Of a stretch of 64,000 nt of DNA, positions 4,963 through 63,533 are shown in pieces. Below the pieces are notes generated by a model. It had not been told where the DNA came from. It did not search any database and saw nothing but the letters and a program-made list of their open reading frames with translations. How positions within the stretch are numbered: position 1 is the stretch's first letter; each line of letters opens with the position of its first letter. This DNA comes from a virus. The stretch spans positions 75,565 through 139,564 of the IMG/VR virus record IMGVR_UViG_3300024262_000015; one strand, written 5' to 3'. Position numbers and translations under genes: made by a program.

Positions 4963-6462
4963 ATGGGTTTTTCACGTACTAATGCGCTTAATCAAGCGCT
5001 CGATGTAGCCGGCTCTTTTACAGTTAATTCGGCTAAAGTTCTTACCGACGAATCTGCAGGCTTAGGCCAATCGCAGCAAACCGGAGTTGATGGTTACCTA
5101 ACTGGTTCCTCACCGACTATTACTCTAACTGCAGCTTCTGCTACATTCACTGCAGCCAGTGTTGGTAACTTTGTTACTATTACTGGCTCAGGAACGGGTG
5201 CAAATAACAGCACTCACTTAATCGTAGCGTTTAGCAGCCCTACTGTTGTCGATCTTAGTATCGTTGGCGGCGCGGCTGATGCTTTACCGCTACCTTGGAC
5301 CGAACGCGCTCCATATAACATTGAAGATGACCTCAACTTTGAACGTACTGACCGTGCCGCAATTAAGGGTGTTGCCTATGATACGGCTGTAACTCCCTAC
5401 AGCCGTCCTTCTACCTCTACCACTCTTACGCCGATGAACCTTGAGCAAATCTCGGGCAAAACCCTTGATGCTAAAGCACTAATCGTTAACCGTACGGAAG
5501 AAAACGCTCCAGTTGAAGATGGTTATACCGTACTTGTTCTTTCTGGTGCCTTCCAATATGCCGATGCTGTAGATCAAACTGGTTATCCGATTAATGATGG
5601 ATTTGATGCGGGCAACCTTTCGGCTACCTATTGTGAAATCATCGACCCAAGTACCGAAGCTGGGGTAGTTATTCCGGATGGTTATGCAAATGCTGGTCAA
5701 CGAATTTATGGTATCGCTCAACAGGGGTCTCAAACTGAAGGCTTAGGCATTGAAATTGCTTTTTATCGAGTTGCTCTTGGCGACCCGATTACTACGGCAA
5801 ATCCCTACACTTGGAATGCTGGTCCAGAAATGCCTACACAGCTTGACCTTTTCCTCGGTTATCGTACCCAAATGGATGACATGGGGGAAGCAGACCTTCG
5901 TGTTACCATGGTTAATGGTCTTATCGGTGATTCTGGCGCACAGCTTGAGATTAATGATATTCGTCAAACCATTGGTACGGTTCAGGGCGATACGGATCTC
6001 GGCACCTATCTTACCAACCAAACGCCGTTTTATATCTTTGACGACCTAAGCCTTACGCCCACTGTTGTTGAAGCTCTAAACGTTCTTAACCTAGAGATTG
6101 GTAACCGAGATTATACAGGTGCTATTCTTACCGATGGTTATACAATCACCGCGTCTCTTCAACAGCTATCAGATGCTATTGCTGAGAATGCAGATGTTCT
6201 TCGTACGATTGAACGTTTGACTGTAAATGCTGCCGCTGGAGTAGCGCACACTGTTCCTGATTCTCTAACGTATGATATAGATGTCTCAAACAATGGTCGC
6301 GGCATGTGGCTTTACTGGCGAGGTGTTCTTAGAGATCCGGGCCCTGTTGTTGATGGAAATGACTATGAGGAAACAAGCACATCTTCATTCACTCCTTATG
6401 CTACTATTAATAGTGGCGATCACATCAACTACTTTATCATAACCGAGACTAACTCTCCGTAG
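4963..6462 (+). CDS. Putative virion structural or decoration protein (4 DGY)
   Basis: 499 aa, T/G/A/D-rich, RBS AAGGA; codon usage looks like that of the capsid gene. Confidence 0.7.
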   Translation: MGFSRTNALNQALDVAGSFTVNSAKVLTDESAGLGQSQQTGVDGYLTGSSPTITLTAASATFTAASVGNFVTITGSGTGANNSTHLIVAFSSPTVVDLSIVGGAADALPLPWTERAPYNIEDDLNFERTDRAAIKGVAYDTAVTPYSRPSTSTTLTPMNLEQISGKTLDAKALIVNRTEENAPVEDGYTVLVLSGAFQYADAVDQTGYPINDGFDAGNLSATYCEIIDPSTEAGVVIPDGYANAGQRIYGIAQQGSQTEGLGIEIAFYRVALGDPITTANPYTWNAGPEMPTQLDLFLGYRTQMDDMGEADLRVTMVNGLIGDSGAQLEINDIRQTIGTVQGDTDLGTYLTNQTPFYIFDDLSLTPTVVEALNVLNLEIGNRDYTGAILTDGYTITASLQQLSDAIAENADVLRTIERLTVNAAAGVAHTVPDSLTYDIDVSNNGRGMWLYWRGVLRDPGPVVDGNDYEETSTSSFTPYATINSGDHINYFIITETNSP

Positions 6463-6485
6463 GTCTAAATTGATATATATTAGCT

Positions 6486-7264: not shown

Positions 7265-7309
7265 CGATATTTATGCGTAACAGTAGGGCCAAACTTTACT
7301 GGGACACAT

Positions 7310-8008
7310 ATGGTTGAAATTGACAGGTTTGACTTAGCTGATGTAGGAGTATCCGATCAAGTTGAGCTTCAGTCTGATTATACAGGATTTTATAAATCTG
7401 TAACTTTAGCTGATACAACCTCAGGTACCGCCACTATAGTTGTATCAACAGTCAGCGATAACCTTCTTCATGCAGATAATCCTGTGGAGTCAGGTGATAC
7501 TGTAGTTATTGCGGGTAATGCAGCAGCCGGAACATACACGATTGATGTCATGATAAGTGATACTCAATTTACTGTAGTAGAATCTCTGCCCGACTCTACT
7601 GGTGGTACTTCTAGTTTTAGATATCCTCCTGGGGCCCAAAAGGTTGGATTTTATGTTGCTCCATTAAGCTTTACATCTGATGCTCCTAATGTTCAAAAAG
7701 TTATGGAGGCCATGGACGGCTACAAGCTTGCTGAAGAGTCTTTATCTTTAGCCATTAATTATGTCCAAAACGGATTTGAGGAAATAACTTATTCGGGAAC
7801 CAAAGCTACAAATATAACACTTTGGGAAACGGCATCAAAACTAATTAAAGTACGAGAATCTCAACTAACCTATGATGGAAATAATGTATCTCAAGTTATC
7901 GATATTCAATACGATGCACTTGGAATAGAAAAGTACCGCTTAACTCAAACCTATGTCTATACTGGAAACATGATCACATCTTCTACCCAAACCCGCACTG
8001 ATGTATAA
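7310..8008 (+). CDS. Putative virion structural protein (1 DGY)
   Basis: 232 aa, T/S/V-rich beta composition. Confidence 0.65.
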   Translation: MVEIDRFDLADVGVSDQVELQSDYTGFYKSVTLADTTSGTATIVVSTVSDNLLHADNPVESGDTVVIAGNAAAGTYTIDVMISDTQFTVVESLPDSTGGTSSFRYPPGAQKVGFYVAPLSFTSDAPNVQKVMEAMDGYKLAEESLSLAINYVQNGFEEITYSGTKATNITLWETASKLIKVRESQLTYDGNNVSQVIDIQYDALGIEKYRLTQTYVYTGNMITSSTQTRTDV

Positions 8009-8406: not shown

Positions 8407-9342
8407 GTGAGAGCATTGATCCTCTCAGGTGGAGCCGGTAGAGGTTCGTTTCAAGTCGGAGTATTAAGAGGGTTACTAAAAAAAAATAAAGATTTAGATT
8501 ATGACATATATGTTGGAAGCAGTGTCGGAGCTTTCAATGCTGGGATTTTAGCTGGTGGACCTTTAAAAGAAACCGTACCAATTTTAGAAGATATTTGGCT
8601 TAAGAAAATCACTGGCAGACATTCTATTTGGCACCACCTTTTAGCTAAAAGATTATTAATATTTGTAGCTATATTTGCTGGATTTATAAACCTAGCTTTT
8701 TTTTCTTTCCTAGCAGACAACCCTAAATGGTTAACTACACTTCTTGCTTTAATTGCTTGGATTTGTATTTATTTGCCCTATAGGATGGTTAAACAAACAC
8801 GCTCTGTTTATACAGCCACACCCTTAAAGCGAGAACTTAGCAAGTACATTTTACAAGAACGAATTTTGCATGGTGGAAAGTCTTTAGTGGTAGCAGCTAC
8901 TTGTCTTAGGACGGGAGAGCTTTTTTACTTTACGGAAAGCGATGTAGATCTAATTGAAGGAATTCATGCCTCGATGGCTTTTCCGGTTTTCTTTCCTCCA
9001 GTTTTTGTAAGAAACGAATGGTGTACTGATGGAGGATTAAAAACTTATGCAGATATAAGTTCGGCTATAGATTTGGGAGCTACCGAAGTGGATGTAATTC
9101 TTACTGTTCCATTAGAAGAGTATAAAGATTTTAAGCCTACTATTTTTTCTCAAGTTATTCAGGTTATAGACGTTGTAACCATGGGAATTATCCAAAACGA
9201 TATAAAGAAACACCGCTTCTCCGATGTTAAAATTAATATTTACATGCCACCTAAAGGATTTTCTCATAAAAACCCTTTAAAGTTTGAACCAGCCTCTCTT
9301 AAAAAATCTTATAATGTTGGAGTTAAAGTAGGAGAAAAATGA
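8407..9342 (+). CDS. Patatin-like phospholipase with a two-helix hydrophobic insert
   Basis: LSGGAGRG glycine loop, GSSVG nucleophile elbow, ASMAFP, DGG motif. Confidence 0.9.
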   Translation: MRALILSGGAGRGSFQVGVLRGLLKKNKDLDYDIYVGSSVGAFNAGILAGGPLKETVPILEDIWLKKITGRHSIWHHLLAKRLLIFVAIFAGFINLAFFSFLADNPKWLTTLLALIAWICIYLPYRMVKQTRSVYTATPLKRELSKYILQERILHGGKSLVVAATCLRTGELFYFTESDVDLIEGIHASMAFPVFFPPVFVRNEWCTDGGLKTYADISSAIDLGATEVDVILTVPLEEYKDFKPTIFSQVIQVIDVVTMGIIQNDIKKHRFSDVKINIYMPPKGFSHKNPLKFEPASLKKSYNVGVKVGEK

Positions 9343-10412
9343 GCAAGCTTATTTATCTAGATGCAAATGCCCACGTCCCCATGAATAAGCAGGCCATCAA
9401 AGCTTATTGTGAATATCATGAGTCTATGGACGGTCATGGTCATCCACTTTCAATGACTACTCCTGGTATTGGGGCCTCAATTAAACTGGAAGAAGCTCGT
9501 GAAAATATAGCTAACTGTATTGGTAGCGAAGAGGCAGGAAACGTTGTATTTACTTTTAACTGCACTCAAGCATGTGAATGGGCTATCAAAATCTTAGCTG
9601 ATAATTGTCCTGTAACCTTTATTTCTGAGGGTGAACATTCTGCTGTTACTATGGCCTATAGAAAGTGGATAGGAGAGCCAAAATTTATAACTGAATATGT
9701 AGAAAACCATGATGGCTATAAAGACGCTGGCCTTGGGTGCATAAGAGTTCAAAACGAAACGGGATTAATTTATCCTGATTTAATCCACATGCCTTCCAAG
9801 TTATTATTTTGTGATATGAGTCAAGCTTTGGGCAAAATAAATGTAGATGTTACAGGATTAGATATTGCCGCTTTCGGAGGTCATAAATTTGGTGGAACTA
9901 ACTTAGGTTTCCTTTATTTTAAGGATCCTTCTTTATGTGAAGAACTTAATTCTGGGTCTAGATATTTCCTTGATGCTCCTGGTACACCTAATGTGGCGGC
10001 TGCTGTAGCTACTTCTGTTGCTCTTATGGATGCGATTCGAACTTTAGATGAACGCACCGAAAAAATGCGACAATTCCAAACTACTATTGAAGATTATTTT
10101 CAAAATAAAAACATTACAGTGGTTCATAAAGACAAGCCTCGTTCCCCCAATACTACTTTTATACACCTTCCTCACGCAATAAACCTTATCCATTCATTGT
10201 CTCAAAAGGGAATATTTGTAGGACTTGGCTCAGCATGCGGTGCTCTACATGAAGGGTTAAGTCCTTTTATGAAATACTCTGGATATAATAATTCTTCTTC
10301 TCAAGACTTTATGAGGATAAGTCAATTTGGAGAATATGGTATTGAGGAAGCCAAGCTGTTTATAGACCAATTTGATAAAAGCTTTGAAGAAGTTTTTCAT
10401 AAGCCAGCATGA
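9339..10412 (+). CDS. iscS: Cysteine desulfurase (IscS/NifS family, PLP-dependent)
   Basis: IYLDANAH, EHSAV, VQNETG, DMSQALGK, GHKFGG (PLP lysine), GTPNV, GSACG (catalytic Cys). Confidence 0.88.
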   Translation: MSKLIYLDANAHVPMNKQAIKAYCEYHESMDGHGHPLSMTTPGIGASIKLEEARENIANCIGSEEAGNVVFTFNCTQACEWAIKILADNCPVTFISEGEHSAVTMAYRKWIGEPKFITEYVENHDGYKDAGLGCIRVQNETGLIYPDLIHMPSKLLFCDMSQALGKINVDVTGLDIAAFGGHKFGGTNLGFLYFKDPSLCEELNSGSRYFLDAPGTPNVAAAVATSVALMDAIRTLDERTEKMRQFQTTIEDYFQNKNITVVHKDKPRSPNTTFIHLPHAINLIHSLSQKGIFVGLGSACGALHEGLSPFMKYSGYNNSSSQDFMRISQFGEYGIEEAKLFIDQFDKSFEEVFHKPA

Positions 10413-11774: not shown

Positions 11775-12110
11775 ATGACTACTTCTATGTTTGCCAACCC
11801 AGGCCAAACGGTTACATTAACTGTTCAAACTGTTGATGGTTATGGAGAAAGAGCTAATGTCGCTGCCCTTCCTAGAATAATGAGCGTTTTGTATCCTAGT
11901 CTCTCCCCGGTCTTAGGGTATCCACAAAACATGTCCAATGTTCAAACAGGGCTCTATGCTCATCAACTCACTCTTCCTACAGGGCCAGTTTCTTTAGGAA
12001 CCTTTGTTGTTAGCACACGCTATGTAGCTTTGAATGGCAGTATTGTTTGGGACACTTTTCTTATTCAAGTAGCTCTCCCATTTGGAAATAGTTCGCTTTC
12101 CCCTTGCTAG
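11775..12110 (+). CDS. Small Ig-like virion protein (1 DGY)
   Basis: 111 aa; aligns by eye to the N-terminal domain of the 12621 product. Confidence 0.65.
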   Translation: MTTSMFANPGQTVTLTVQTVDGYGERANVAALPRIMSVLYPSLSPVLGYPQNMSNVQTGLYAHQLTLPTGPVSLGTFVVSTRYVALNGSIVWDTFLIQVALPFGNSSLSPC

Positions 12111-12620: not shown

Positions 12621-13568
12621 ATGGCTATTGTCTGCCCCCCAATCATACCTCCTCAACCAGAAATAGTAATCCCGACCCGAATTGTTCCAAGAAGTGAAAT
12701 AGCTCAGCCGGGAGATGCTATCGTTCTTTGCATGGAGTTTCGTGGACCCAATGGAGAACTAACCAATCTAGACGAGGTTCCTTCTATTGATATTGTTGAG
12801 CCTAATGGAAGAGTACGCACAAGCCAAAGCAAAGGCATTTACCAACAGGGTACAGGAAAATATGCTTTTAATTTTGAAGTTGGGATAGCTCCAGATCTGG
12901 GTGTGTGGACCGATATTTGGAAAGGTATTATTAATGGGTTTGAGGTCTTTGGGTCTGGAAACTTTGTAGTAGCCACCTCTCAAATGCCCGCTCTTAACAC
13001 AGATGGGTATAAACATTTAGGCGATGATCCGGGTTTTGACTACTCTCAAAATGCTATCTGTAATATAAATAGCTTAATTCAAATGCTTAGGGCTCGTTTA
13101 AGAAGCTCTGGAAAACGCCCTACTCACGATGAATATGGCAACACTATCTTTGAAAATTGTGACATTTTTACTGTAGAAGAAATGGTAACCTTCCTGTGTA
13201 CGTCTCTTGAACACTTTAATGCAGAGCCAACCTTCACGTTTTTTAGCTTTGAAGATACCCCAATTGTTCAAAACTTTGGCTCAGTCTTAGTTCAGGGCGC
13301 TACTGTTTTTGCTTTAGGCGCTCAAGCTCTAGTAGAAAAAGGCAGAGAGCTAAACATTACTGATAACGGAATTAGCTTTACTCCACCTCAAGTATCTGAT
13401 TTATTAAATACTCAATACTCCACCGAAATGACGCAGTGGATTGAAATGGTGCAGCGCGTCAAGAGAAATATGAAACCGAATCCTCTGGGGCTTGGTACAT
13501 TCAGACCTCTTTCCGCTGCACCTCAAGTATTACGTTTACGCTGGCTTCGAGCTAGGCGGATCTTTTAA
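12621..13568 (+). CDS. Putative head-tail adaptor/neck protein with N-terminal Ig-like domain (1 DGY)
   Basis: Helical C-terminal domain (LRARL..EHFNAEP..LVQGATVFAL..ITDNGISF) resembles connector proteins; position between head and tail genes. Confidence 0.55.
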   Translation: MAIVCPPIIPPQPEIVIPTRIVPRSEIAQPGDAIVLCMEFRGPNGELTNLDEVPSIDIVEPNGRVRTSQSKGIYQQGTGKYAFNFEVGIAPDLGVWTDIWKGIINGFEVFGSGNFVVATSQMPALNTDGYKHLGDDPGFDYSQNAICNINSLIQMLRARLRSSGKRPTHDEYGNTIFENCDIFTVEEMVTFLCTSLEHFNAEPTFTFFSFEDTPIVQNFGSVLVQGATVFALGAQALVEKGRELNITDNGISFTPPQVSDLLNTQYSTEMTQWIEMVQRVKRNMKPNPLGLGTFRPLSAAPQVLRLRWLRARRIF

Positions 13569-21622: not shown

Positions 21623-21723
21623 AGCGGAAGGTTTCTAAATATGCTTGGGAGACAACTAAGACGGCTATTGCTCCATCATTTAGAACGGAGGATTTAGAAG
21701 AGATGAAGAAAGGAGTTTTATGA
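21544..21723 (+). CDS. Small very basic protein (59 aa)
   Basis: [40 protein letters not shown]; RBS AGGAAG; ATGA overlap with the Nudix gene. Confidence 0.45.
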
Positions 21724-22112: not shown

Positions 22113-22114
22113 GT

Positions 22115-35163: not shown

Positions 35164-35201
35164 GGTCGTCTGATATATCCTTTAAGTAGAAAGGAATATC
35201 T

Positions 35202-35840: not shown

Positions 35841-36205
35841 CCAAGGAAACCGAGCAGCAATTTCTCTTTTTCCTATGTCAAGTATTCAGAAAATTGCCAA
35901 GTGATCCGTTCATTCAGGATATGGATCCGCTTATTAAGATGTGGTTCTTGGAATGTTGGCGTGGGGAACAGGAAATACAGGCTGATAAAAGGCGAAATTT
36001 AGGCATCCTTGTAGGCGCATTCACTAATCCTGAAATGGCTCGCAAGATGACCGAAGAGCCTATTACTACTTCAGATGAGGATTTTGAGGCGTCTACTCAG
36101 GAGTTCCTTGATGATGAAAAGCGCGTTAAAACCGAGGCTCTTCTAGAAAAAGAGAAGAGCAAAAAACGGATTTCACGACGTAAGAAAAGAAGAAGAGTAA
36201 TATAA
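35837..36205 (+). CDS. Tail assembly chaperone -1 frame extension (GT)
   Basis: -1 frame open from the A7 run: IAKETEQQFLFFLCQVFRKLPSDPFIQ.., continuous with track ORF 35894-36205. Confidence 0.8.
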   Translation: MAKETEQQFLFFLCQVFRKLPSDPFIQDMDPLIKMWFLECWRGEQEIQADKRRNLGILVGAFTNPEMARKMTEEPITTSDEDFEASTQEFLDDEKRVKTEALLEKEKSKKRISRRKKRRRVI

Positions 36206-36206
36206 A

Positions 36207-38243: not shown

Positions 38244-38251
38244 TATAGTAT
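38239..38251 (+). promoter_or_regulatory. Candidate late promoter AAT-N6-GYAT
   Basis: AAT AGTATA GTAT, 6 nt before ATG 38258, no SD. Confidence 0.55.
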
Positions 38252-38257
38252 ATTGTT

Positions 38258-39178: not shown

Positions 39179-39193
39179 TAAGGAGAGGAAAGA

Positions 39194-53700: not shown

Positions 53701-53968
53701 AGTGCTTCCGGCTTTTGTTACTTCATCAAATATTGTTGTACAAAATGTAAAGGATGTAGTCGTCTCGGCTTTAAACGCTACTGCTCTAGGGACTACAATT
53801 GACCAGTCAGATCTTGTTGCAGTGGCTATGGGAGTGGAAGGGGTGGATAGAGTTAGGATAACAAAGTTTAATTTACCGGGGATAGTAGGAAATGTTTTAA
53901 GCATTAGGGCAGGCGAGAACGAATACTTGCAAGCCAACAATGTTCAAGTAACAACAGAAACGAGGTAA
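50717..53968 (+). CDS. Baseplate J / gp6-like wedge protein (1 DGY)
   Basis: PGTVARDL, LDRLGQNFGASR, VTNPNAFGGGTDSETDAAYRQR, C-terminal SDLVAVAMGVEGVDRV. Confidence 0.88.
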   Translation: MVRIRTQNEIVLDTIDFFRKAKPQLDTKPGTVARDLVINAPASQLAPLYEALAQVESSQALINAIGQNLDRLGQNFGASRLDGSRSSGEALLTFASLEADIVINAGSSIASNNGSTFQVSQGITISVIQKNFYRSLASRFRQDLDFVGITDEFAALVPAQATQRGSSSNISRFALTATAIPGVDNVTNPNAFGGGTDSETDAAYRQRILGVFSGANTGTTTGYRQAILGIAAALDARVVGPGNPLMTRDGTDVVDVDGVRIIVSEGTGGKVDIYVFGLRIQSILDTYIYRDKSNTGDATATINDFVLGQIDGDEGKTVSTRRVENLQNETLPDQPVNNIVSVVGSASGENFLPISINEFGVISGNYQLIRDTGAFGGSPWGFDKLHWISNQIINFKEDLTKGIFNGQDPLSFTDATRIGGATQPYSVANENSDVNPVDRSSIQLLHYPVTNVSRVFNVTTGERYVVSNQNPDGTGAQNNTGRITIRGNTLPTTTDILQIDYTWLYNYDPNYDFYNLESGENIRPAVDVIDWGFSNDVRQEREPVEDGYLNVIHPVSSVISVNTFEEVLSTVTSVSGRLAVVLTVPVNNVVSIRRVSDGAELFGTARDDGSINGLVIFLPTDTVGKIGQAVDVTFNAVNVFVRDGVQGSFSGNTITLPASVFLPPDPLPVGTIVQANYIANVRTLLPATTLSSLPACESGNGFITTTSNGTIGFQPFTNTFSSPGVVDENLRRAPTRLSMVIGGTVSAGVLTAQGTTIKGVFDVVFTATQASLTQDLSSVIRSSLGLASNASIPSTVRIGRLVSVEKVNTAFANSQVVTQVLNDYDILGYGISNNEFTKNQAVAETDLSSTQFTLPSTFSNLNSVPKVGDRLRVTFYYVTTDDSENIFFSRAGTLVTQKRFAHIKAIIISSGFTSSPSQSATLTVNNQNQPTGGARYSPSYNYIAPKSNERISIRYNLNQLIKDETLEIERVRPVTADVLVKASIPVLVDASMVIVVLPAFVTSSNIVVQNVKDVVVSALNATALGTTIDQSDLVAVAMGVEGVDRVRITKFNLPGIVGNVLSIRAGENEYLQANNVQVTTETR

Positions 53969-56900
53969 ATGGCCAACCTTCGCCTTGTTCAGTTAAGAGT
54001 TAATAACAGTCGAACTATTCGGTCTAGTTGGACTGAAGACCTTGATCCTAATATTGGTACGGATAATGTTATTATTCGTTCTATTAATCCAGGAGTAGGA
54101 GATAGTCTTGTTCAGACTGTTTCTATTACAAAACGCTTTCTTACAATTACTTGCCTACCTTTGATTCCATTTGCACGATACGAGGTTGTGTTTAGGTCTA
54201 CTCTTGCTCAGCCTTTTCAATCTAAGAATCACAGATCTCACTTATTAGAAGATGCTAAGACAAATGTTGCCCCCATTCTTGGCGCTGAGAATCCTGTTAA
54301 CGCTGCCAGAAATAACATTCTTTTTCTCTTAGCTAAAAATATTTATGATCTCCAACAAGGAACATTTGTAAGAACAGTTTTAGATAGGATTGGAGGAGGA
54401 ATACAGGGAGCTAACAATGATATTGGCCAGCTTAGAAACAGTACATTTTTAGATGCCCCTGTTATTGATGAAAGGAAAGTAAGGGGTTATGGTCCCTATG
54501 ATAAATTAAGCGAGGGTAGTGCGTATGATATTATACGTGTTGGTCAAACAGAAACTAATACTACTTTATCTGGATCTATTTCTTTGGCTTCTTTTCCTTT
54601 CGACCCCATTTCTCTTCAAGCTCGAACAGTTATAAATGAAGGGCTAGAGGCAGGAACGGGAGCCGGAACCTTTGATCGATTTATATTAACAGTCAATAAG
54701 GGCCCGGTTATTATTGTTGAATCTATTCGAATAACTTATGCAGATACTACAACCTTTGATTATCCCATCAATAGTTTGGGCTATAGACTTCAAAACTCTA
54801 GATATGATTCCCCTCATGCTTCTACTTTCTTAGGTTTGGAGCCAAATCAAATTGAGCTTAACGATGATGTAATTGATTTGCCGGGGTTTAAGATTCCTGC
54901 TGTTGGTGATTTTATAAGGATCACCTATCAGTTTAAAGCTCTAGGCAGGTATGTTGAAGCTGAGTCTGTGGTGGTATCTAGGGTATTGGTTCAGCTTAGA
55001 GAATCTACTCCTGCTCTTATTAATCAATTTAGTTTACAACATGCTCCTATTGTAAATAATAAAGATGAAATTCCACAAACTGGTGGGGTACAGTTTTTAG
55101 ATCCTGAGTCTGATACTCCTTTTCAAACTGTTCATCCAGCTTTTATTACAGAAATTCCGTTTGTTTTTGAAAACATTCCTAGGAATCCTGGCGAGTACAG
55201 TGTGGACTATGCAACGGGTAGAGTTTTTGTGTTCGGAGCCAATAAAGAACAAGAGGGAACGGGCTTCTTTCCTCCGGCTGCTACTTATAAGTATCGCAAA
55301 GTTTTTCAAAATGATTTAGATTATATATATAATCCAGAAGAACAAGAGATTGTTCAGTCTCCGCTCAGAGATCTTGCTACCCAACCAGTAAAGATTACAT
55401 TTAATTATGAAGAAGCGCTAATACCTTATACAGATTTTATTCCCCAGGTTCATCAAGAGGTTTTAGATGAACGCATGGAAAATAGATTGGTGGCATCTAA
55501 TGCATTACAGGTTACTAATAGCCCAGTAACAAATGTGTTTCGGATCTTTAATGAAACATCCGGAGAGATTTATAGTGTGACTCGCTTTGAGGGAGACACT
55601 ATTTTTTATTCTTTTGACTTTCCTCCTGCTGTTGGAGAAGAGAATAGAGAAAGGGCTTCATTCAAATTCTTTAATGGAGAAACGCTAATCCTTTCTAAGG
55701 AATTTCTAAATGCTAAGGGAGTAAGGGTCTTTAAGGTTCCTCTTCAAAGCTTCCCAGTTATTTCAGCTACTCAGGATCTGATTGGAAGTAGCTTTAACTC
55801 AAGCGCTACCTTTAGTCGAAATGATTTATTTGAGCTAGAGCTTTATTATGATGACTTCTTATCTGAAACATTTAATGTAAATAGATTAGAAATAGGTTTT
55901 TATTCTATAAACTATGAAGAGGGTTTAGTTTATGTAGGGGTAGCGTCCTCTCAAATAGCTGATGTTGGAACTATTACTTATGCTGGTCCAATTATTGTGC
56001 CAAACAATCCTCATGTAACTGGGGTTGCAGATATTTTCTTTAGTCTTTCTCCCAATCTTCTTCCGAGCAAAAGGTTTAATTATTCAGGCTTTCAAGAGGC
56101 AGAAATATTTCCTCTTGGCCTAGATTTTTCCAATGAGAGATTTTTTAATGGCGATCCCACTCAGCCGTATTTTGTTAATGCCGGAACCATTGAGGTTACC
56201 TATGACATTAGGGCTATCCAAGGAATCTATGATGGTTATGATTTAGACAACAACCTGATTCCTACCAATTTTGCTCCGGGGGCCACATTCTTAGGAACAC
56301 TGATTACTTTGGATCCTACTGGTATTCAGAAACAAACAAATGGGCTGGTGGTTCAGCCAGGGTTAGAGGTAACGGTTCCTACTATCGCTCCGGGGATTAA
56401 TCTCAACCTTGCTCTTTCAGTTATTCGAGTGAGTGATGGGGCCGAGCTTTTAGATGGTTATGAAACCATTATTGGTAATACAATTAACTTAAACATTGGT
56501 ACAGTTGGGGATGTGGTTAATGTTGTGTATACGGTAGAGCTTAATGGTGCGGCCACTCCCATAGTTGATTATGATCATGGAGGTCTTTATATAAATTATT
56601 CTTATGTGGCTGATGAGATTTTAATTAGCTATGAACATGGCAACAATCAATTAGATTTCTCACAAAGCTCTACATTAGATCCGGGTGATGTCTATTATGT
56701 CTCGTACAAAATAGGTGCGCTAAGAGATGCTTTGTTTAATAACTTTGGAAGCTTGGTTGCCATCCCTGACTTCGAGTCTTTTGATACGGATTTTTCTAGA
56801 GAGAGCTATAGAGATGCGCTTATTGGGGCCCTTCAGTCCTTTACTAAAGGCCCTACAATTCCTGCGCTTAAGGAGTTGGTCTCTGCAGTAACAAAGATTT

Positions 56901-59900
56901 CGCCCCGTATTACAGAGGCTATCTTTGAAGTATGGTCACTAGGCGTTAGTTTTCTTCAACCTGTAGAACCACAAGTTTTAGGGGAACCAATACTAACCCC
57001 AGGTAAGTTTGATCAAGGGATTTTGTGTACCAAGGTTGGCCAGGCTGTTTCGTTTCCTGTATCTAGCAATTTGAGGTTGGACGAAGGAACGATGCAGATG
57101 TGGGTTGTTCCGCAATGGGATGGTCTAGATAATGATGCTGAGCTTTTGTTTTGTGACTTAAAGCTAGATGGATATCTTCTTCCAGCAAACAAGATTTTTA
57201 TAGGAGCAGCGAGTACCAATCCTATTTACGATGCTCAAAATAAATTTAAGGTTAACCGCAATTCTGATGATTGTATTCCTGGAGGTGTTCCAAGTAAGCT
57301 TTTTACGGAGCCCAAAGGAATGTTTATTTACTTTGATGAAGATATTTCTCGATGGAATATGATTGTTAAAGATGGGTATGTTGCACCACCTGATGGATAT
57401 GTTTATAGTGGAAAGATAACTGCTACTGGTGAGTTTTATGATGTTAAGTATCTTCCCAATATGGGTGAGGGAACGGATCGTTTACAGAGTGCAGAAGGAA
57501 ATATTGAGTTTCGGTTAACAGTTGATAATGATGGATATTGTTTTAATGGACCTGTGGATGGTTATTCGTGTGATGGAATAACCTTTATGGCTGACGAGTT
57601 TCATTACTTCTTTGACTTTGCTGAGACGGCTACAACTAATCGGATGTCTCTTTATAAGGATGGATCTGGTTATTTAAATTTTGAAGTTTGGGATCGTGGA
57701 GGTCGTATACCAAATAGACCTACACGAAAGAATAGGTATTCAGTAAGTGCTGATATTCAATCTTGGAGAAAGGGCGAAAAGCATAATATAGCAACAGCAT
57801 GGCAAGTAAATACTTCTGATAACAGAGATGTTCTTCATTTGTTCATTGATGGTTTTGAAGTCCCTAATATTCTCAGGTATGGTGGTCGCCCTATAGCCAC
57901 ATCTTCGGATCGGTTTAGGACTGTTCAACCGGAAGTTGTAGCAGGAACATTGCCCGTTCCTATTGTTGGAGGCCATGATCTTGTCACGATAGCTGGGCAA
58001 CCCTTTGTTTCTTCTCCCACAATAGACTTTGAAGATAGAGGGGTGACTGGCGGGTTCATTCGTATTTTTGAAAGTGGGTTTGGAGACTTCTTAATAAACT
58101 CAGTAGCAGGAAATGTTATTACTCTTTCTTCCCCAATGCCTGCATCGTTATTGGATGCTCGCTTTTCGGTTAATCCCTTTACAGCAGTGGTATCTGATCA
58201 AGTAGGCATTGCTCCTAATGTAGAGGTGTCGATGCTAAGCGGTGGAGAGGAAGTAGAGATTCCTGGAGTCCGGGCTGAAAACCCTGCTTATGAAATTGGT
58301 AAGAATGCATTTAATGAAACTACCCTAACTATTTTGAATGATGGCTATACGGGAGATCAGATTCTTATTAGGACTCTAGGTCTTAACAACCGGCGGTGTA
58401 AGGAGCCCGTTTTTATCTGGGGGAATACTCAATCTATTCTAAAAACCAACCTTCCTCCTCCTATAAATGTTCAGGAAACTTTAATAACCAAAATTATTGT
58501 TCCATTGGTTCCTATTGGTCCAGCTAATTCTATTATTGTTGGGCCAAATTATGATGGTTACGTTGATGGTTATTTCCAGCCATCTAATGTTGTTGAAGGA
58601 CGAAAGTTAGCGGTTCGTATTACTGGAGATAATATTGATTTTACTACTCCTACTACGGTAACCATAAGCGGAGCAACGACTGGTGGGCCTTTGAGTGAGA
58701 CCTTAGTTTTTACTCAAGTAGAGACATTGCCTACAGTAGCAAGGTTTACACAGATAGATGAAGTAAATGTTGTAACCCGTCCTGTAACCTTTTTGAGAGA
58801 CGGTACTGCAGTAGAGATAACTGAACTGTTCCCTATCACTGTAGCCGATACAAATGCCATTTATCCTGTTATTAGGTATGCTTTAAAGACTGGCCAAGGA
58901 GATACGCTTCAAGGAGACGGAAGTGATATTGTAACTGATCCTGATGGAGACTTTGCCCTATCTGATGTCGGAAATCTAATTAAGCTTACTCTTCCTTTAA
59001 TAGTAAGTGGGGTATATGAAATAGTAGAGAGGATTTCTAATACAGAAGTAAGGCTTTCTCCAGCCCCACCAGTTGCATTTGTAGGGGGAGACTATGAGAT
59101 TTATCAAATTACTCCTTCTACTAATGGTTTCCAAAACGGATTTTTCTTTTTGCTTGAGGCGGGGACTGCGAATACACCATTTGAATTAACGGAAGGGTTT
59201 TATGAGTTCAATTATTCTGCGTATCTTGAAATACCTTTTGACCCTCTCTGTCAACAAGCTTTTATCGGTAATAATTTCCTGGGCGATAAACCAGCTAAAG
59301 CTATTATTGATGAGTTTAGAATCCTCTCAAGACAACTCACTGATACCCGTGTGGGAGAAGATTTAGACGCAGGGCAAGAGTCTATTACTACAGGATATAC
59401 TGCTATCCGTCCCTTTATTAAAAACCCTCAGACGCTGGTGTTAATTCATTTTGATACTCTTCCATTAGATAATGATTCAGATTTTTATGTTTTTGCAAAT
59501 AAAGATTTTATCCAATCAGCCAATAGTGTAAATGAGCGCTTTGAACAATCTATTGTTATTAAAGAAAAAGGCTTGGAGTTTCAAAACGAAGGACGCTTAG
59601 ATACCAGAAATAGTGGAACCATTGAGTTTTGGATTAGCCCTAGGTTTGATACTCTTAATGATCCAAACCTAAGGTTTTACTTTGATGCCGCCGCTGCTGT
59701 TACGGAAGATACAGTAAGTGATACTAAAACTCAGTTAAAGGTTTCTAATCGTATTTTTGAGATTATAGAAATAAGAGAAATAGGCAACCCCAATTCTCCT
59801 AACTTTGCTGATGGGGCGCTGGTATCTGATGACCGAACTACTATAAATCTAAGCAAAGCATTACCCGGATCTAAAACTCCAGTGACAGTTACCTTTGTTC

Positions 59901-60613
59901 CCAGTGGTTTTGTGGGAGATCGGGTCTCTATTTTCAAAGATGTAAATGGAGAAATTGTGTTTAATGCTCGGGCTAAGGGACAGGATTACCAGCTTCGGCG
60001 TCAGGTTTTATGGGCTAGAGATACGTGGCATAGGGTTATGGCCACCTATAAGTTTAATAGTTTAAATAATAAAGATGAATTGCGGCTCTTTTTGGATGGG
60101 GAAGAGTGGGGAGAGATAAGGTTTGGAGAAGGTCTAATATATGGAACTGGTTATGTTTATGGTGAGGCTGCTGTAGGGATTGGGACGACGTTAATAGCAG
60201 ACATAAACTTTACAGATACTCTTTTTCAATTTTCCATAGGGCAAGATTACCGTGGATTTTTCCCGGCTCAAGCTAGGATGGATAATCTTAAGATAAGTAA
60301 TCTAGCTCAAAACCCAAGAATAATTTTGGGCCAGCCGTTTGATGTTAACTACAATAGCAATCTAAGTATGGTGTACCCCGTTATAGAAGATGCGTTCACT
60401 ACCTTTTTATTGAACTTTAATAGCTTGCTCGCAAAAAATGAAGACTTTGCTATTTTAAGGGATGCAGCCTTCGGGGTATTCAACTTTGATATAGACATCA
60501 TAGATTCTTTTGACATTGTTTTGGATAACGAACGTTTGAAAAAGCTATTAGAAAGCGCGATTCTTGCTTTAAAGCCAGCAACTGCAAAGGTAGGAATCAA
60601 ATATTTCCAGTAA
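53969..60613 (+). CDS. Very large baseplate wedge protein with LamG/concanavalin-like domains (10 DGY)
   Basis: 2214 aa; YRDAL..KGPTIPALKELV wedge motif; GTMQMWVVPQW, GTIEFWISP, WHRVMATY..LFLDG, MDNLKISN; ends ALKPATAKVGIKY. Confidence 0.7.
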   Translation: MANLRLVQLRVNNSRTIRSSWTEDLDPNIGTDNVIIRSINPGVGDSLVQTVSITKRFLTITCLPLIPFARYEVVFRSTLAQPFQSKNHRSHLLEDAKTNVAPILGAENPVNAARNNILFLLAKNIYDLQQGTFVRTVLDRIGGGIQGANNDIGQLRNSTFLDAPVIDERKVRGYGPYDKLSEGSAYDIIRVGQTETNTTLSGSISLASFPFDPISLQARTVINEGLEAGTGAGTFDRFILTVNKGPVIIVESIRITYADTTTFDYPINSLGYRLQNSRYDSPHASTFLGLEPNQIELNDDVIDLPGFKIPAVGDFIRITYQFKALGRYVEAESVVVSRVLVQLRESTPALINQFSLQHAPIVNNKDEIPQTGGVQFLDPESDTPFQTVHPAFITEIPFVFENIPRNPGEYSVDYATGRVFVFGANKEQEGTGFFPPAATYKYRKVFQNDLDYIYNPEEQEIVQSPLRDLATQPVKITFNYEEALIPYTDFIPQVHQEVLDERMENRLVASNALQVTNSPVTNVFRIFNETSGEIYSVTRFEGDTIFYSFDFPPAVGEENRERASFKFFNGETLILSKEFLNAKGVRVFKVPLQSFPVISATQDLIGSSFNSSATFSRNDLFELELYYDDFLSETFNVNRLEIGFYSINYEEGLVYVGVASSQIADVGTITYAGPIIVPNNPHVTGVADIFFSLSPNLLPSKRFNYSGFQEAEIFPLGLDFSNERFFNGDPTQPYFVNAGTIEVTYDIRAIQGIYDGYDLDNNLIPTNFAPGATFLGTLITLDPTGIQKQTNGLVVQPGLEVTVPTIAPGINLNLALSVIRVSDGAELLDGYETIIGNTINLNIGTVGDVVNVVYTVELNGAATPIVDYDHGGLYINYSYVADEILISYEHGNNQLDFSQSSTLDPGDVYYVSYKIGALRDALFNNFGSLVAIPDFESFDTDFSRESYRDALIGALQSFTKGPTIPALKELVSAVTKISPRITEAIFEVWSLGVSFLQPVEPQVLGEPILTPGKFDQGILCTKVGQAVSFPVSSNLRLDEGTMQMWVVPQWDGLDNDAELLFCDLKLDGYLLPANKIFIGAASTNPIYDAQNKFKVNRNSDDCIPGGVPSKLFTEPKGMFIYFDEDISRWNMIVKDGYVAPPDGYVYSGKITATGEFYDVKYLPNMGEGTDRLQSAEGNIEFRLTVDNDGYCFNGPVDGYSCDGITFMADEFHYFFDFAETATTNRMSLYKDGSGYLNFEVWDRGGRIPNRPTRKNRYSVSADIQSWRKGEKHNIATAWQVNTSDNRDVLHLFIDGFEVPNILRYGGRPIATSSDRFRTVQPEVVAGTLPVPIVGGHDLVTIAGQPFVSSPTIDFEDRGVTGGFIRIFESGFGDFLINSVAGNVITLSSPMPASLLDARFSVNPFTAVVSDQVGIAPNVEVSMLSGGEEVEIPGVRAENPAYEIGKNAFNETTLTILNDGYTGDQILIRTLGLNNRRCKEPVFIWGNTQSILKTNLPPPINVQETLITKIIVPLVPIGPANSIIVGPNYDGYVDGYFQPSNVVEGRKLAVRITGDNIDFTTPTTVTISGATTGGPLSETLVFTQVETLPTVARFTQIDEVNVVTRPVTFLRDGTAVEITELFPITVADTNAIYPVIRYALKTGQGDTLQGDGSDIVTDPDGDFALSDVGNLIKLTLPLIVSGVYEIVERISNTEVRLSPAPPVAFVGGDYEIYQITPSTNGFQNGFFFLLEAGTANTPFELTEGFYEFNYSAYLEIPFDPLCQQAFIGNNFLGDKPAKAIIDEFRILSRQLTDTRVGEDLDAGQESITTGYTAIRPFIKNPQTLVLIHFDTLPLDNDSDFYVFANKDFIQSANSVNERFEQSIVIKEKGLEFQNEGRLDTRNSGTIEFWISPRFDTLNDPNLRFYFDAAAAVTEDTVSDTKTQLKVSNRIFEIIEIREIGNPNSPNFADGALVSDDRTTINLSKALPGSKTPVTVTFVPSGFVGDRVSIFKDVNGEIVFNARAKGQDYQLRRQVLWARDTWHRVMATYKFNSLNNKDELRLFLDGEEWGEIRFGEGLIYGTGYVYGEAAVGIGTTLIADINFTDTLFQFSIGQDYRGFFPAQARMDNLKISNLAQNPRIILGQPFDVNYNSNLSMVYPVIEDAFTTFLLNFNSLLAKNEDFAILRDAAFGVFNFDIDIIDSFDIVLDNERLKKLLESAILALKPATAKVGIKYFQ

Positions 60614-60620
60614 GGGATGG

Positions 60621-63533
60621 ATGTCGAGACTACCAGTAGATCCGTTAAGGCCTAAATGGCATGACTCACAAAGAGTAGATGTTGATGACATGGATAGCGA
60701 GCAAGATAGTTATCTTGGTCAGGATGCTGCCATTGTTAATAATCATTTTGGATCCGGTGTGGTTCCTAGTTCTCCGGTACCTATTGTTTTATTTAATACC
60801 GATGAGCTTTCTAATGAACAAAAAGCACTAATAGATTCCAACGAATTTGATGGAACAGGCATTCACCCAACCCTTCAACCATCAGATCCGGTATTGGGAA
60901 ATCAAATTCAGGTTAGGCTTGAAGGATCTTCTGTGTTTGGCAGGCAGAGCGTAAGGGTAGCCATTATTGGTGTAAACTTTAATGGTGATACCCAATTTGA
61001 TACATTTGAGTTTCACCGTAATGAGCGCCAAATTACTTGCAATCATTATGTAAGAATTTTGGCTATATTCTTTAATAACTTTAAGGGTAATACTAATTGT
61101 TCAAGAGAGTATGGAGGTACATTAGTTTTCACCGAGGCTGCATCCTTTGAGCTTTCACGAGATCCAATTGCTATTTCCCAAGATGTTTTCCCTAATATAT
61201 TTTGGAGAGATTATAAGGTAGCTAATCCAGCCCTGACTCTATATGAGACTTTACAAATTGGAATTGGTCCTGAGTATACCGTTGATTCCCTTTTAATAAA
61301 CACTACTCCTAAGTTAGTGAGATCTTTAAATGCTGATGATACTGTAACTAGGTATGGCGAAAAGTTTATTGCTACCACTAATAATATCCAAAAAATAACT
61401 CTTCTCTTAGGTGCCACTCCAGATTTGACTGTGCCCATTGGAAATAAGTTTGATTGGAGTGGTGATATTGTAGTTAGTATTTTCCCTCTTCAAACAACTG
61501 TTAATTGTCCTACTGATATTGTGCCGGGTCTTCAAATTGGTTTTGATCCAGAGTTTGAGCCGCTTGTTCAGCTTACGTTTAGTCAGGTTGAATTATTTAA
61601 TGCAGGCTATATTCTAACTGATATTTTTCAGCCAGTAGATTTTGTTTTTAGTACTACCAAAATAGCCAACCCTCTTAACTCGCCTATTGTCCCTGGTCGG
61701 TATTATGCTGCCACCATTGGGCGAACGGGTAGCACAGGGACAGGAGATATTTTGGTGGCTGTTGGTGGAGATAGAACTCCAGATGCAAGAGCTACTATTT
61801 ATTCTGGCGTTTGGACTGATGTTCCCGATGACGACCTATGGTTTCAGGTATGGACGGATGCAGCAAAGGTAGCAGACGGAGAGGCTTACGACCAAGGTAA
61901 GGGTATACAGATTCCCAAGAAGATAACAAATGAGTTGGGGGTCGAAGAGGATTATTGTTTTGGGCATAAAAATTTTGTTAATGTTTCTAATGCTTTAAAT
62001 ACTGGAGTTATCGAAGCGGCAGTCAAGGAAAGCGATGTTGAGCAAGATGAAAGAACGGGCAATCCAGTTTTTGCTCGTCAACAATACGAACCTATTTTTA
62101 GTTTCGTAGACGATCCATCTACTCTTGATGAAGAAACAGATCCACTTATTATTGGGTGTGGTCAAGACAAAAATCCTCGAAATAATCCTTTGCTATTAAA
62201 GAGCATGACCCTTCCTGGTCTGGTTAATGACGATAAGTTTATTATCGTTGCTCCTGACGCAGACATTCTTTCTTTTAACTTTATAGATACAGTACTGAAG
62301 CCTAACGTGTTGGACTGTCTTCATGAGTATAGGATTTTTAGAGTAACCCAATGTGTTGATGGGTATGGCGATGTAAATGGTGATGGGGTTATTACTGAAG
62401 AGGATGCTTGTGCTGCGGCTCTTTTAATTGGAGAGGATCTTTCTTCTCCCGCTACTCAACAAAAAATTCTAGACGGTTACTTTACAACTCTTCAGTTCCT
62501 TCGCACTGATGTAACTGGAGACGGTGTAATATCCGAAGAAGATGTTGATCTAATTAGAAAATTTGCCAACCATGAAGATGGCTACGTAAGTTTTCCTGTA
62601 GGATCATCCTTTCGGCATACTGAATTTCAGGTTCAAAGACTTACTGGTCGTTACGATGGATACTTTACATGTACTGATGGGTACATGGATATCAATAATG
62701 GTAAGGTTCCATTCTCGGCTCTTTCTCCAGAACAGCTTTTATATGATGGGTATGACGCGCCTCCTTGCATTCAGTGTGAGGATCCGATTTTTATTACTAT
62801 TCCCTTTCCTGGTGTAGACTTTGAGCTTCAGCCTCAAGCCTTTTGGTCAGCGGATATGGTGCCGTTTAGTAGCGATGCCAGATTGACTCCTGCCGCTTTC
62901 ACTTATCCAGATGCTCTTCCTCCGCTTTGTGAACCGGCCTTGAGCCCATTCTTTTGTGAAGATACGATTGATGCTCCTTTGGCTTGTAATCCAGGTAGGA
63001 ACGATTTCTTTGTTCCAGCAAATTTGATTCTGGGTGGAGATATTATTCGACCAGATGGAAGACATTTTGGTGGCGATTACGAGATGGGAATAATCATCTT
63101 GGAGCTACCAGAAAATCCTTTGGTTGAATCGGTTTTAGATATCTTTAATGTCTTTGTGGCTGATGTAGGAAATGGCTATACCGCCTTAGGGTATCGGGCT
63201 ATGAGGTTTGCCAGTTGTGATACGGTAAAGCCTGATGGTCTTGAGAAAAATCAGATAAGGTTTGATGTAGCGCTTCAAGCATTCAACCCAAATCTAGATG
63301 GTTACGATGGATATGCTGATGGCTATGGGGTAATTGTAGACGATATTATTGGGGTTCATATAAATCCGTTAACCGGAGTCTTAACCTTAAATATTAGTGA
63401 TCTAGAAGTAAACATTTTACTACAGACTTTGGTTACTAAGATTCAAATTATAATTCATCTTAAACAAGGAGGATGGATTAATCCCACTCTTGTTGTTCCT
63501 CCAAGTCAGGCTGCCGCACTTTTGTCTAGTTAG
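60621..63533 (+). CDS. Tail/baseplate-associated protein with dockerin-like Ca-binding repeats (9 DGY)
   Basis: 970 aa; GDVNGDGVITEED and TDVTGDGVISEEDVDLI. Confidence 0.65.
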   Translation: MSRLPVDPLRPKWHDSQRVDVDDMDSEQDSYLGQDAAIVNNHFGSGVVPSSPVPIVLFNTDELSNEQKALIDSNEFDGTGIHPTLQPSDPVLGNQIQVRLEGSSVFGRQSVRVAIIGVNFNGDTQFDTFEFHRNERQITCNHYVRILAIFFNNFKGNTNCSREYGGTLVFTEAASFELSRDPIAISQDVFPNIFWRDYKVANPALTLYETLQIGIGPEYTVDSLLINTTPKLVRSLNADDTVTRYGEKFIATTNNIQKITLLLGATPDLTVPIGNKFDWSGDIVVSIFPLQTTVNCPTDIVPGLQIGFDPEFEPLVQLTFSQVELFNAGYILTDIFQPVDFVFSTTKIANPLNSPIVPGRYYAATIGRTGSTGTGDILVAVGGDRTPDARATIYSGVWTDVPDDDLWFQVWTDAAKVADGEAYDQGKGIQIPKKITNELGVEEDYCFGHKNFVNVSNALNTGVIEAAVKESDVEQDERTGNPVFARQQYEPIFSFVDDPSTLDEETDPLIIGCGQDKNPRNNPLLLKSMTLPGLVNDDKFIIVAPDADILSFNFIDTVLKPNVLDCLHEYRIFRVTQCVDGYGDVNGDGVITEEDACAAALLIGEDLSSPATQQKILDGYFTTLQFLRTDVTGDGVISEEDVDLIRKFANHEDGYVSFPVGSSFRHTEFQVQRLTGRYDGYFTCTDGYMDINNGKVPFSALSPEQLLYDGYDAPPCIQCEDPIFITIPFPGVDFELQPQAFWSADMVPFSSDARLTPAAFTYPDALPPLCEPALSPFFCEDTIDAPLACNPGRNDFFVPANLILGGDIIRPDGRHFGGDYEMGIIILELPENPLVESVLDIFNVFVADVGNGYTALGYRAMRFASCDTVKPDGLEKNQIRFDVALQAFNPNLDGYDGYADGYGVIVDDIIGVHINPLTGVLTLNISDLEVNILLQTLVTKIQIIIHLKQGGWINPTLVVPPSQAAALLSS

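Follow-up and report, generated by a model that had tools for sequence, protein, structure and literature searches.

Protein glycosylation can be directed by very short sequence motifs. In bacteria, Campylobacter PglB recognizes the sequon D/E-X-N-X-S/T, and general O-glycosylation in Bacteroidota uses the motif D-(S/T)-(A/I/L/V/M/T); in chlorovirus PBCV-1, the machinery that glycosylates the major capsid protein Vp54 is encoded by the virus itself. According to the excerpts of the reports used here, Vp54 of chlorovirus PBCV-1 is glycosylated at the atypical sequons NTXT and NIPG (PMC9614988); mycobacteriophage virions are glycosylated by phage-encoded glycosyltransferases (GTs), the subunits of the capsid and tail tube bearing their glycans at the C-terminus (PMC12619734, PMC12582341); and the Firmicutes Paenibacillus alvei, Thermoanaerobacter and Thermoanaerobacterium carry surface-layer (S-layer) glycans linked to Tyr through a β-Glc or β-Gal O-linkage, for which the excerpted text reports no sequon (PMC2943079). 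None of these systems uses the tripeptide Asp-Gly-Tyr (D-G-Y, hereafter DGY), of which we found no published description in the literature searched. Here we analyse DGY in the proteins encoded by a 64,000-nucleotide stretch of phage DNA (positions 75,565 to 139,564 of IMG/VR virus record IMGVR_UViG_3300024262_000015; hereafter the window), whose structural module carries the tripeptide far in excess of chance.

Our analysis indicates that DGY is almost certainly a selected surface tag, and that it is probably read by something through the Tyr hydroxyl. We propose below a more tentative reading, in which the reader is a set of glycosyltransferases encoded by the phage, and weigh it against other explanations.

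Results

DGY is over-represented in proteins of the structural module

The window holds 43 DGY in 14 of its 45 open reading frames (ORFs; 19,201 amino acids), and every per-ORF count of a first-pass annotation made from the sequence was reproduced: with ORFs named by the window position of their first base, there are 10 in 53969, 9 in 60621, 4 each in 4963 and 22689, 3 each in 15373, 25578 and 32014 (the tail sheath), and 1 each in 7310, 9339, 11775, 12621, 31134, 46423 and 50717. The remark in the same annotation that about half of the Asp-Gly dipeptides in the last two proteins precede a Tyr was equally accurate (10 of 20 in 53969 and 9 of 15 in 60621). The composition of each protein predicts 2.67 DGY in total, ~16-fold fewer than observed (z 24.7; Poisson P 3e-36), and 2,000 per-protein shuffles gave a mean of 2.67 and a maximum of 10. 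DGY is the most over-represented tripeptide in the window; the runner-up, WHR (2 observed), reaches a z of 6.7. A first-order model based on dipeptides raises the expectation to 6.5–8.8 (Poisson P 1e-16), and this estimate is conservative because DGY itself raises the DG and GY counts. The excess over chance claimed at first pass survives both corrections, which rules out an artefact of composition or dipeptide usage.

The signal resides in the proteins rather than in the DNA, as had been claimed. Of the occurrences of the degenerate sequence GAYGGNTAY, 43 are in frame and 4 in the other two ORF frames; two more lie outside any listed ORF, and the minus strand has none. The codons vary (GAT 40 and GAC 3 for Asp; GGT 18, GGC 8, GGA 6 and GGG 11 for Gly; TAT 31 and TAC 12 for Tyr). 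Frame and strand specificity together with the variable third positions rule out a DNA-level repeat or motif, and the use of all four Gly codons argues against any DNA-level bias. The carriers are, moreover, non-homologous at the sensitivity of BLASTP: an all-against-all comparison of the 45 window proteins returned a single match involving a DGY-bearing protein, a weak one (E 5e-4) between the DGY-free N-terminal part of 60621 and the DGY-free protein 39194. A single homologous repeat domain as the vehicle of DGY is ruled out on these grounds, the DGY proteins sharing no domain detectable by this method.

The rest of the contig contains 4 DGY against 2.89 expected in 24,102 amino acids; because this remainder is near chance, the enrichment is specific to the structural module. 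Within that module the tripeptide is unevenly spread. The seven-ORF block at 34522..46416 (+), tube to hub/spike by position, contains none, and together with ORFs 48471 and 50160 it would be expected to contain 0.42; the seven DGY-free tail and baseplate families over five genomes hold none against 2.62 expected (18,658 amino acids). The first-pass annotation had listed capsid, tube, tape measure, hub and spike as free of DGY: the zero counts are correct, the labels tube, tape measure, hub and spike are positional, and the zeros in the capsid pieces and the tail block amount to a lack of enrichment, avoidance not being proven. Its view of all 14 carriers as outer virion proteins does not hold for 9339, which is a class-V aminotransferase.

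DGY behaves as an exact unit

Single-residue variants of the motif do not share in the enrichment: in the window, NGY (1 observed, 2.5 expected), EGY (2 and 2.3), DAY (0 and 2.3) and DGW (0 and 0.8) are no more frequent than chance predicts, and DGF shows little excess (7 and 4.7). The reordered motifs YGD (3 observed, 2.7 expected), GYD and DYG are likewise at or below chance. The same exactness appears in the exchange pattern. In the sheath and 60621 alignments, Phe makes up 15 of 1312 residues (1.1%) at Tyr columns where DGY is the majority, compared with 648 of 4168 (15.5%) at other majority-Tyr columns, a tenfold contrast between counts that are not independent, as the rows are related sequences; replacement of the Asp by Asn or Glu is likewise rarer at majority-DGY columns. 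The rarity of Phe therefore points to selection on the hydroxyl and not merely on the aromatic ring. Exactness and the Tyr-to-Phe contrast are as found for a short linear motif that is selected as a unit, in the manner of a sequon.

The surroundings of the motif carry little information. Among 196 non-redundant sites, Gly is over-represented at +1 (37 vs. 17), Pro is missing at +1 and nothing else stands out; there is no enrichment of Asp, Asn or Glu at positions −8 to −1. A Ca-binding context of the DxDxDG or dockerin type was considered as a general explanation and rejected, because the flanks show no acidic pattern and only the two loops of the dockerin-like module in 60621 fit. Spacings between sites peak at 3 and 7, and pairs of the form DGYxxxxDGY (spacing 7) recur in four different proteins.

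AlphaFold 2 (AF2) models of the sheath and of 60621 (predicted local distance difference test, pLDDT, 84.4 and 82.2, respectively) place 11 of 12 DGY tyrosines in coil, compared with 13 of 34 other tyrosines. All modelled DGY sites are at turns or strand ends, and three DGY tyrosines, those of the DGYDGYADGY run of 60621, are in a loop with a pLDDT below 50. The loop location that the first-pass annotation anticipated, and that would be expected of a sequon-type system, is thus what the two models predict. The sheath matches the phi812 and pyocin sheaths by Foldseek and VIA-align, with only ~320 of its 826 residues aligning; by the usual sheath topology, its DGY triad (residues 180–206) would lie in extra, non-core domains that face outward. 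Distant sheaths have ordinary turn sequences (DANG, DSNG, DAYG) at the DGY positions. As far as the outcomes unfavourable to a protein-level motif were computed, the results fall on the other side: the excess survives correction, no repeat domain carries it, non-structural proteins are not enriched, and the sites are outside regular secondary structure.

DGY sites are both conserved and newly gained in relatives

Among the candidates scored, 584 relatives of the sheath were found at E ≤1e-3. The best 120 of them (54–84% identity) contain 351 DGY where 16.2 would be expected. The window's own three sheath sites are retained in 113, 114 and 118 of these sequences. For 60621 the excess is larger still: 120 relatives hold 1051 DGY against 26.3 expected, with ten columns kept in 56–119 of the 120 and 17 sporadic ones. 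The enrichment extends to the neighbourhood of these genes, with 183 DGY against 20.3 expected in 30 viral-contig loci around the sheath, and observed/expected values of 57/4.9, 32/4.4, 48/4.8 and 37/4.4 in the 80-kb syntenic regions of four relatives. Across these four regions the same orthologous families carry DGY and the same families lack it. A few of the relatives' proteins are binned with metagenome-assembled genomes of Clostridia.

Alignment of 12 families from up to five genomes gave 83 DGY columns, a few of them alignment-dependent, of which 5 are present in all five genomes and 46 in one genome only. The single-genome columns face unrelated residues or gaps in the other genomes, and some of them are tandem insertions. 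Because conserved and lineage-specific columns coexist, we conclude that purifying selection maintains established sites while new ones are gained repeatedly; a comparison of homologues for gain and loss, which the first-pass annotation had suggested, thus yields both kinds of site.

A separate observation concerns the small domain of the sheath that bears its DGY sites (residues ~130–250, window 32401–32763). This domain is also found inserted in proteins of the 22689 family from other phages (P0339, P0355, P0357, P0360, P0364 and P0367), where the copies are 40–56% identical, an instance of domain shuffling between two virion proteins.

A glycosyltransferase cluster follows the fibre gene in relatives

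The window takes up the final 64 kb of a single virus record of 139,564 bases. The record lacks a terminal repeat, and CheckV puts its completeness at 33%; it is therefore a fragment, about one third of a huge-phage genome of ~400 kb. Gene 60621 is followed by 467 further bases before the contig breaks off within a TnpB-like fragment on the minus strand (63567..64000, −), which was assigned by translation and synteny.

The 60621 orthologue is immediately followed, in each of the four relatives examined, by a gene for a GT4/GT1-family enzyme (GT4 below). Behind the GT4 gene in these relatives lie genes for five GT2 enzymes, GT10, GT11, Glyco_trans_1_2, an FkbM methyltransferase and another methyltransferase. 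All four share the GT4 and the two GT2s that come next; the GT4 proteins are 43–70% identical among them, and the cluster proteins contain no DGY. We fetched 80 viral-contig loci with the 60621 alignment, of which 65 were long enough (at least 20 kb), duplicates not being removed. GT4 was located in the downstream flank of 62 of the 65 at first pass and of 64 after a second look, being split into two frames in one of the two loci added; in the remaining locus the contig ends 7 kb after the fibre gene. In those 62 loci, the upstream 10 kb and the fibre gene contain 812 DGY against 57.0 expected. The boundary is sharp in the 22 loci found with GT4, where the upstream 10 kb has 9–26 DGY (~0.85 expected) and GT4 with the downstream 10 kb has 0–2 (~0.5 expected), one of the 22 loci (L074) being mis-binned by the fixed locus boundary.

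A crude hydropathy scan of the 55 ORFs of the four GT clusters revealed no polytopic membrane protein, with at most one marginal hydrophobic window in 4 of the 55. This absence fits a stepwise assembly in the cytoplasm rather than a lipid-linked glycan that is flipped across a membrane. A predicted complex of GT4 and the 111-amino-acid DGY protein of relative G001, both supplied as alignments, gave no answer (score 0.00, no controls). In another relative (G010, C1:51722–52730), the GT4 orthologue is split into two frames of 129 and 236 amino acids, and the fibre region is still rich in DGY (20 vs. 1.18 expected); the split may reflect a frameshift, an error in sequencing or an inactivation that happened recently.

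Genes that carry DGY and their neighbours

The window contains a capsid gene broken by LAGLIDADG ORFs, followed by the long plus-strand structural module. Two structural proteins are recognized by profiles, the sheath 32014 (PHROG) and the Baseplate_J protein 50717 (Pfam); PHROGs, run on 20 window proteins, recognized the sheath, one "virion structural protein" and none else. Because only the sheath and Baseplate_J are recognized, the labels tube, tape measure, hub, spike and neck are positional.

ORF 4963..6462 (+), just after the capsid gene, encodes a 499-amino-acid protein of unknown family with no Pfam or PHROG match, whose DGY are at residues 43, 186, 239 and 391; its orthologues in relatives have 1–3, mostly at other columns. 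The 232-amino-acid protein of 7310..8008 (+) has one DGY and its orthologues 2–3. The site in the aminotransferase at 9339..10412 (+; Pfam Aminotran_5, E 4e-25) is probably due to chance, as this is not a virion protein; the orthologues in G001–G003 have no DGY. The single site of the 111-amino-acid protein at 11775..12110 (+; residue 21) is kept in five of five genomes, and that of the 315-amino-acid protein at 12621..13568 (+) is present in three of five. The 802-amino-acid protein at 15373..17781 (+), with its three sites, has no orthologue in the four relatives' regions. The 531-amino-acid protein at 22689..24284 (+) includes a DGYDGY tandem among its four sites, two of which are kept in four of four. 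Upstream of the sheath are a 1819-amino-acid protein (25578..31037, +; 3 DGY), whose orthologues have 4–7 DGY over 16 alignment columns, and a 263-amino-acid protein (31134..31925, +), whose single site is kept in four of five.

The 826-amino-acid tail sheath (32014..34494, +; PHROG tail sheath) has its DGY at residues 180, 187 and 204, all in loops. Beyond the DGY-free block, a 682-amino-acid baseplate-region protein (46423..48471, +) has one DGY and its orthologues 1–3, and the 1083-amino-acid Baseplate J-like protein (50717..53968, +; Pfam Baseplate_J, E 1e-17) has one and its orthologues 0–2. The ten DGY of the 2214-amino-acid fibre-like protein (53969..60613, +) are all between residues 755 and 1535; this protein has a ConA-like (Laminin_G_3) module near its C-terminus, and its orthologues have 3–6 DGY over 16 columns. 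The last fibre gene (60621..63533, +) encodes a 970-amino-acid baseplate/fibre protein whose best Foldseek matches are phi812 baseplate chains and whose nine DGY are at residues 580–902, including the DGYDGYADGY run in the low-confidence loop. Residues 582–647 of this protein (window 62364–62561) form a dockerin-like module with paired Ca-binding loops; its Pfam Dockerin_1 score is 22.7 bits, with the cut-off at 22.9, and most of the 120 relatives carry a precomputed Dockerin_1 match. The module could dock a cohesin-like partner on the virion or the host.

Other genes were noted in passing. The Pfam scans, which took in 39 of the 78 ORFs of the left half (those of at least 200 amino acids) and 36 of the 45 window ORFs, show that the left 75 kb codes for replication and head-region functions; matches in the left half and the window are to topoisomerase, SbcCD, DNA polymerase III α, RecA, trigger factor, DnaJ, primase, terminase and inteins, and further matches in the contig are to a protein tyrosine phosphatase (PTP)-family phosphatase, patatin, class-V aminotransferase, NUDIX and HNH. 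Hint/intein and LAGLIDADG homing-endonuclease domains lie in large head-region proteins of the left half (1585 and 1005 amino acids). A 396-amino-acid head-region protein (genome 54749–55939) has an N-terminal PTP/dual-specificity phosphatase domain (Y_phosphatase2, E 3.5e-14).

Within the window, the capsid ORF 1551–2030 is 75% identical to part of an unbroken 338-amino-acid ORF in relative G004. Two related ORFs, 663–1481 and 2168–2935, lie on either side of 1551–2030; they are 27% identical to each other, and the latter matches LAGLIDADG_2 (E 5e-38). Rfam at its gathering threshold gave no group I intron, and no match at all, in window 1–5000. A patatin-like phospholipase (E 1.6e-24), the class-V aminotransferase and an HNH endonuclease are located inside the structural module at 8407–11036; orthologues of the aminotransferase (38–39% identity) are at the same place in three of four relatives. 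At 21720–22594, shortly before the DGY-rich 22689 gene, there is a NUDIX hydrolase (E 5e-15), and the protein next to it has a weak eCIS_core-like match (E 5e-4, under the cut-off). A second TnpB/Cas12f-like piece, a 233-amino-acid ORF with a Cas12f1-like TNB domain (E 2.4e-11), is located at 20921–21622 (+); the repeated TnpB/Cas12f-like mobile element may be the cause of the assembly break just before the expected glycosyltransferase cluster.

Discussion

We tentatively favour the reading that DGY is a positively selected, clade-wide tag on outward virion proteins in a large group of uncultured huge phages, the Tyr of which is O-glycosylated in the cytoplasm by the phage's own GT cluster. 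Late in infection, the soluble glycosyltransferases of the phage would act in the cytoplasm, and the exposed D-G-Y turn would serve as their sequon, recognized through the Tyr hydroxyl with the Asp two residues before; a sugar would be put on the Tyr oxygen, stepwise extension would produce a fucosylated, methylated oligosaccharide, and the neck, outer sheath, baseplate periphery and fibres would leave the cell glycan-coated. This reading supposes that proteins are what the GTs modify, with Tyr as the acceptor, and that the glycan has a role in shielding or adsorption. In its fullest form, which we advance with still more reserve, the proposal is one of sequon-directed cytoplasmic Tyr O-glycosylation in huge phages: GT4 would start a fucosylated, methylated glycan that cloaks tail, baseplate and fibres, DGY would be the first strict Tyr sequon in any organism, and its density would be tuned by lineage, from ~4- to ~20-fold over chance.

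Several observations weigh against this proposal. No glycosyltransferase was found in the contig itself by Pfam on the scanned ORFs or by six-frame searches with PF00535, PF00534 and the GT4 profile, in line with the first-pass annotation, which had recognized no modifying enzyme. However, because the record is ~33% complete and ends where relatives carry the cluster, we regard this as an artefact of the contig end and not as an absence, GT4 following the fibre gene in 64 of the 65 loci of relatives. The link to GTs is therefore drawn from the relatives. A sister lineage (sheath ~42% identical) has 32 DGY against 19.2 expected around the sheath in 20 loci and yet keeps GT4 in five of five long records. 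Its complete member G005 (335,169 bases, terminal repeats, GC content 34%) keeps the fibre–GT4 synteny; its structural 80 kb contains 17 DGY against 4.5 expected, an excess of ~4-fold concentrated in the same fibre families, and the rest of its genome 15 against 11.0. DGY density therefore varies ~fourfold among lineages that all have GT4, and since the weakly tagged sister lineage retains the enzyme, the presence of the GT does not predict DGY density. The search for co-occurring enzymes, recommended at first pass, accordingly found one that accompanies the fibre gene throughout but does not track the enrichment. No lineage with the fibre genes but lacking GT4 was found among the 65 loci and the sister lineage, a result that neither supports nor refutes the link; because every lineage with the fibre genes has GT4, the co-occurrence is consistent with a functional link but is explained equally well by common descent.

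Cultured phages add a weak contrast to these points. When the phage collection was searched by tblastn with the sheath and Baseplate_J, only Eggerthella phage LE2-3 (5 DGY vs. 4.39 expected in 15,798 amino acids) and Bacillus phage G (3 vs. 2.04 expected in 9,202 amino acids of its tail module) matched; as both are without the tag, no cultured member of the tagged clade was found. Neither has a GT4 orthologue or a GT2 above the Pfam cut-off, and the contrast is weak because both are distant relatives. Two further points belong to the same side of the balance: a loop location is expected for any Asp-Gly dipeptide, and we know of no glycosyltransferase that uses a D-G-Y sequon. The target could also differ: one GT2 of the cluster has a sub-threshold match to the TET-associated DNA glycosyltransferase family, and phage GT clusters can glycosylate DNA instead, as described in the excerpted part of PMC12619734.

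Other explanations start from the same observations. DGY could be an unmodified micro-site, whose Asp carboxylate and Tyr phenol bind a host glycan or a metal (Ca2+, Fe3+) and provide multivalent weak adhesion along tail and fibres. Such a site would account for the selection on both the Tyr hydroxyl and the Asp, for the peak of DGY density on fibre and baseplate proteins, for the spacing-7 pairs in four different proteins, and for the way in which the DGYs of 60621 interleave with the dockerin-like Ca-binding loops, where a Tyr follows the loop DG in 56 and in 109 of the 120 relatives. We consider it unlikely: the strict order, with YGD, GYD and DYG at chance, is odd for a simple two-group ligand site; the acidic flanks of the DxDxDG type are missing; the sheath, neck-region and head-proximal proteins bear the tag too, although the use of adhesion is less evident there; and the conserved GT cluster beside the fibres would be left unexplained. 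A docking site for another phage protein, such as a decoration or cement protein, a whisker or an assembly chaperone, would likewise suit a tag on surface loops of many unrelated virion proteins, and several small ORFs of unknown function are present within the module. Nevertheless, the sites are too many and too varied in geometry for one folded partner (ten on one fibre, and a DGYDGYADGY run in a disordered loop), they turn over rapidly and no candidate reader has been identified, and we regard docking as distinctly unlikely.

It is also conceivable that nothing reads DGY, and that it is a favoured structural turn (an Asx-Gly turn with an aromatic anchor) spread by mutation bias or drift in β-rich proteins. 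The position of all modelled sites at turns or strand ends, the turn sequences of distant sheaths at the same positions and the conservation of many sites, as is usual for structural residues, are all in keeping with this idea. However, NGY and DGF/DGW, which include the classic turn formers, are not or only mildly enriched, Phe almost never replaces Tyr, and the use of four Gly codons leaves no room for a DNA-level bias; moreover, new sites arise at non-homologous positions and by insertion into disordered loops, and seven other tail and baseplate families have no DGY in 18,658 amino acids, with non-structural proteins at chance. A structural turn alone thus appears improbable. The selection on the Tyr hydroxyl and the Asp would be equally well explained by another modification of these residues (phosphorylation, sulfation, nucleotidylation, oxidation, cross-linking or isoaspartate formation at Asp-Gly); Asp-Gly is a classic hot spot for isoaspartate, and the head-region genes of the contig include the PTP-family phosphatase domain. 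Against this stand the breadth of the PTP family and the position of the gene in the DGY-poor half, the fact that isoaspartate formation needs no following Tyr, and the absence of a kinase, sulfotransferase or radical-SAM enzyme among the ORFs scanned, in a scan that is itself incomplete and of a contig that is ~33% of the genome. As the GT cluster is the only conserved enzyme set beside the DGY-rich genes, we judge a modification other than glycosylation to be improbable as well.

Should DGY indeed be a glycosylation sequon, uncultured huge phages in their hundreds, across many habitats, would sugar-coat their tails and fibres with enzymes of their own, with a bearing on host recognition, on resistance to proteases and adsorption traps, and on the persistence of particles. 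A defined three-residue Tyr sequon together with a soluble enzyme set could then be transferred to E. coli for protein engineering. Were DGY to prove a binding site or a metal site instead, a code of three residues under selection across a dozen unrelated virion proteins would still be unusual.

The proposed tyrosine glycosylation at DGY can be set beside the known systems. Like the bacterial sequons, DGY is a very short motif with an acidic residue just before the acceptor (Asp at −2, as in PglB), occupies exposed regions of surface proteins that are unrelated to one another, and is freely gained and lost. The bacterial sequons differ in their acceptor, which is Asn, Ser or Thr where it would be Tyr here, and in their machinery, which consists of membrane enzymes that use lipid-linked glycans outside the cytoplasm, whereas the clusters described here encode no polytopic protein and virions assemble in the cytoplasm. 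The S-layer glycans, as far as the excerpted text describes them, share with our proposal an O-glycosidic linkage to Tyr on surface proteins of Firmicutes; they differ in that they are assembled on a lipid carrier and transferred during secretion by a membrane O-oligosaccharyltransferase to 2–4 sites per protein (PMC2943079). The hydropathy scan found no counterpart of a membrane oligosaccharyltransferase or flippase in the four GT clusters.

The excerpts on mycobacteriophages describe cytoplasmic glycosyltransferases that are encoded by the phage and decorate virion proteins, as we propose here. Their glycans are on C-termini of capsid and tube subunits, whereas the capsid pieces and the presumed tube protein 34522 have no DGY; the sites described here are internal and on sheath, baseplate, fibre and neck-region proteins, and the mycobacteriophage system has no sequence relationship to them and no defined tripeptide. 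PBCV-1, a eukaryotic virus, differs in that its glycans are N-linked, to Asn of a capsid protein, whereas here the acceptor would be Tyr on tail and fibre proteins of a phage. To judge from the excerpted account, it is like our proposal in being a large virus that equips a structural protein of its own, at short non-canonical motifs, with complex glycans in which fucose and methylated sugars abound; the clusters of the relatives studied here likewise contain genes of fucosyltransferase families (GT10 and GT11) and an FkbM methyltransferase gene.

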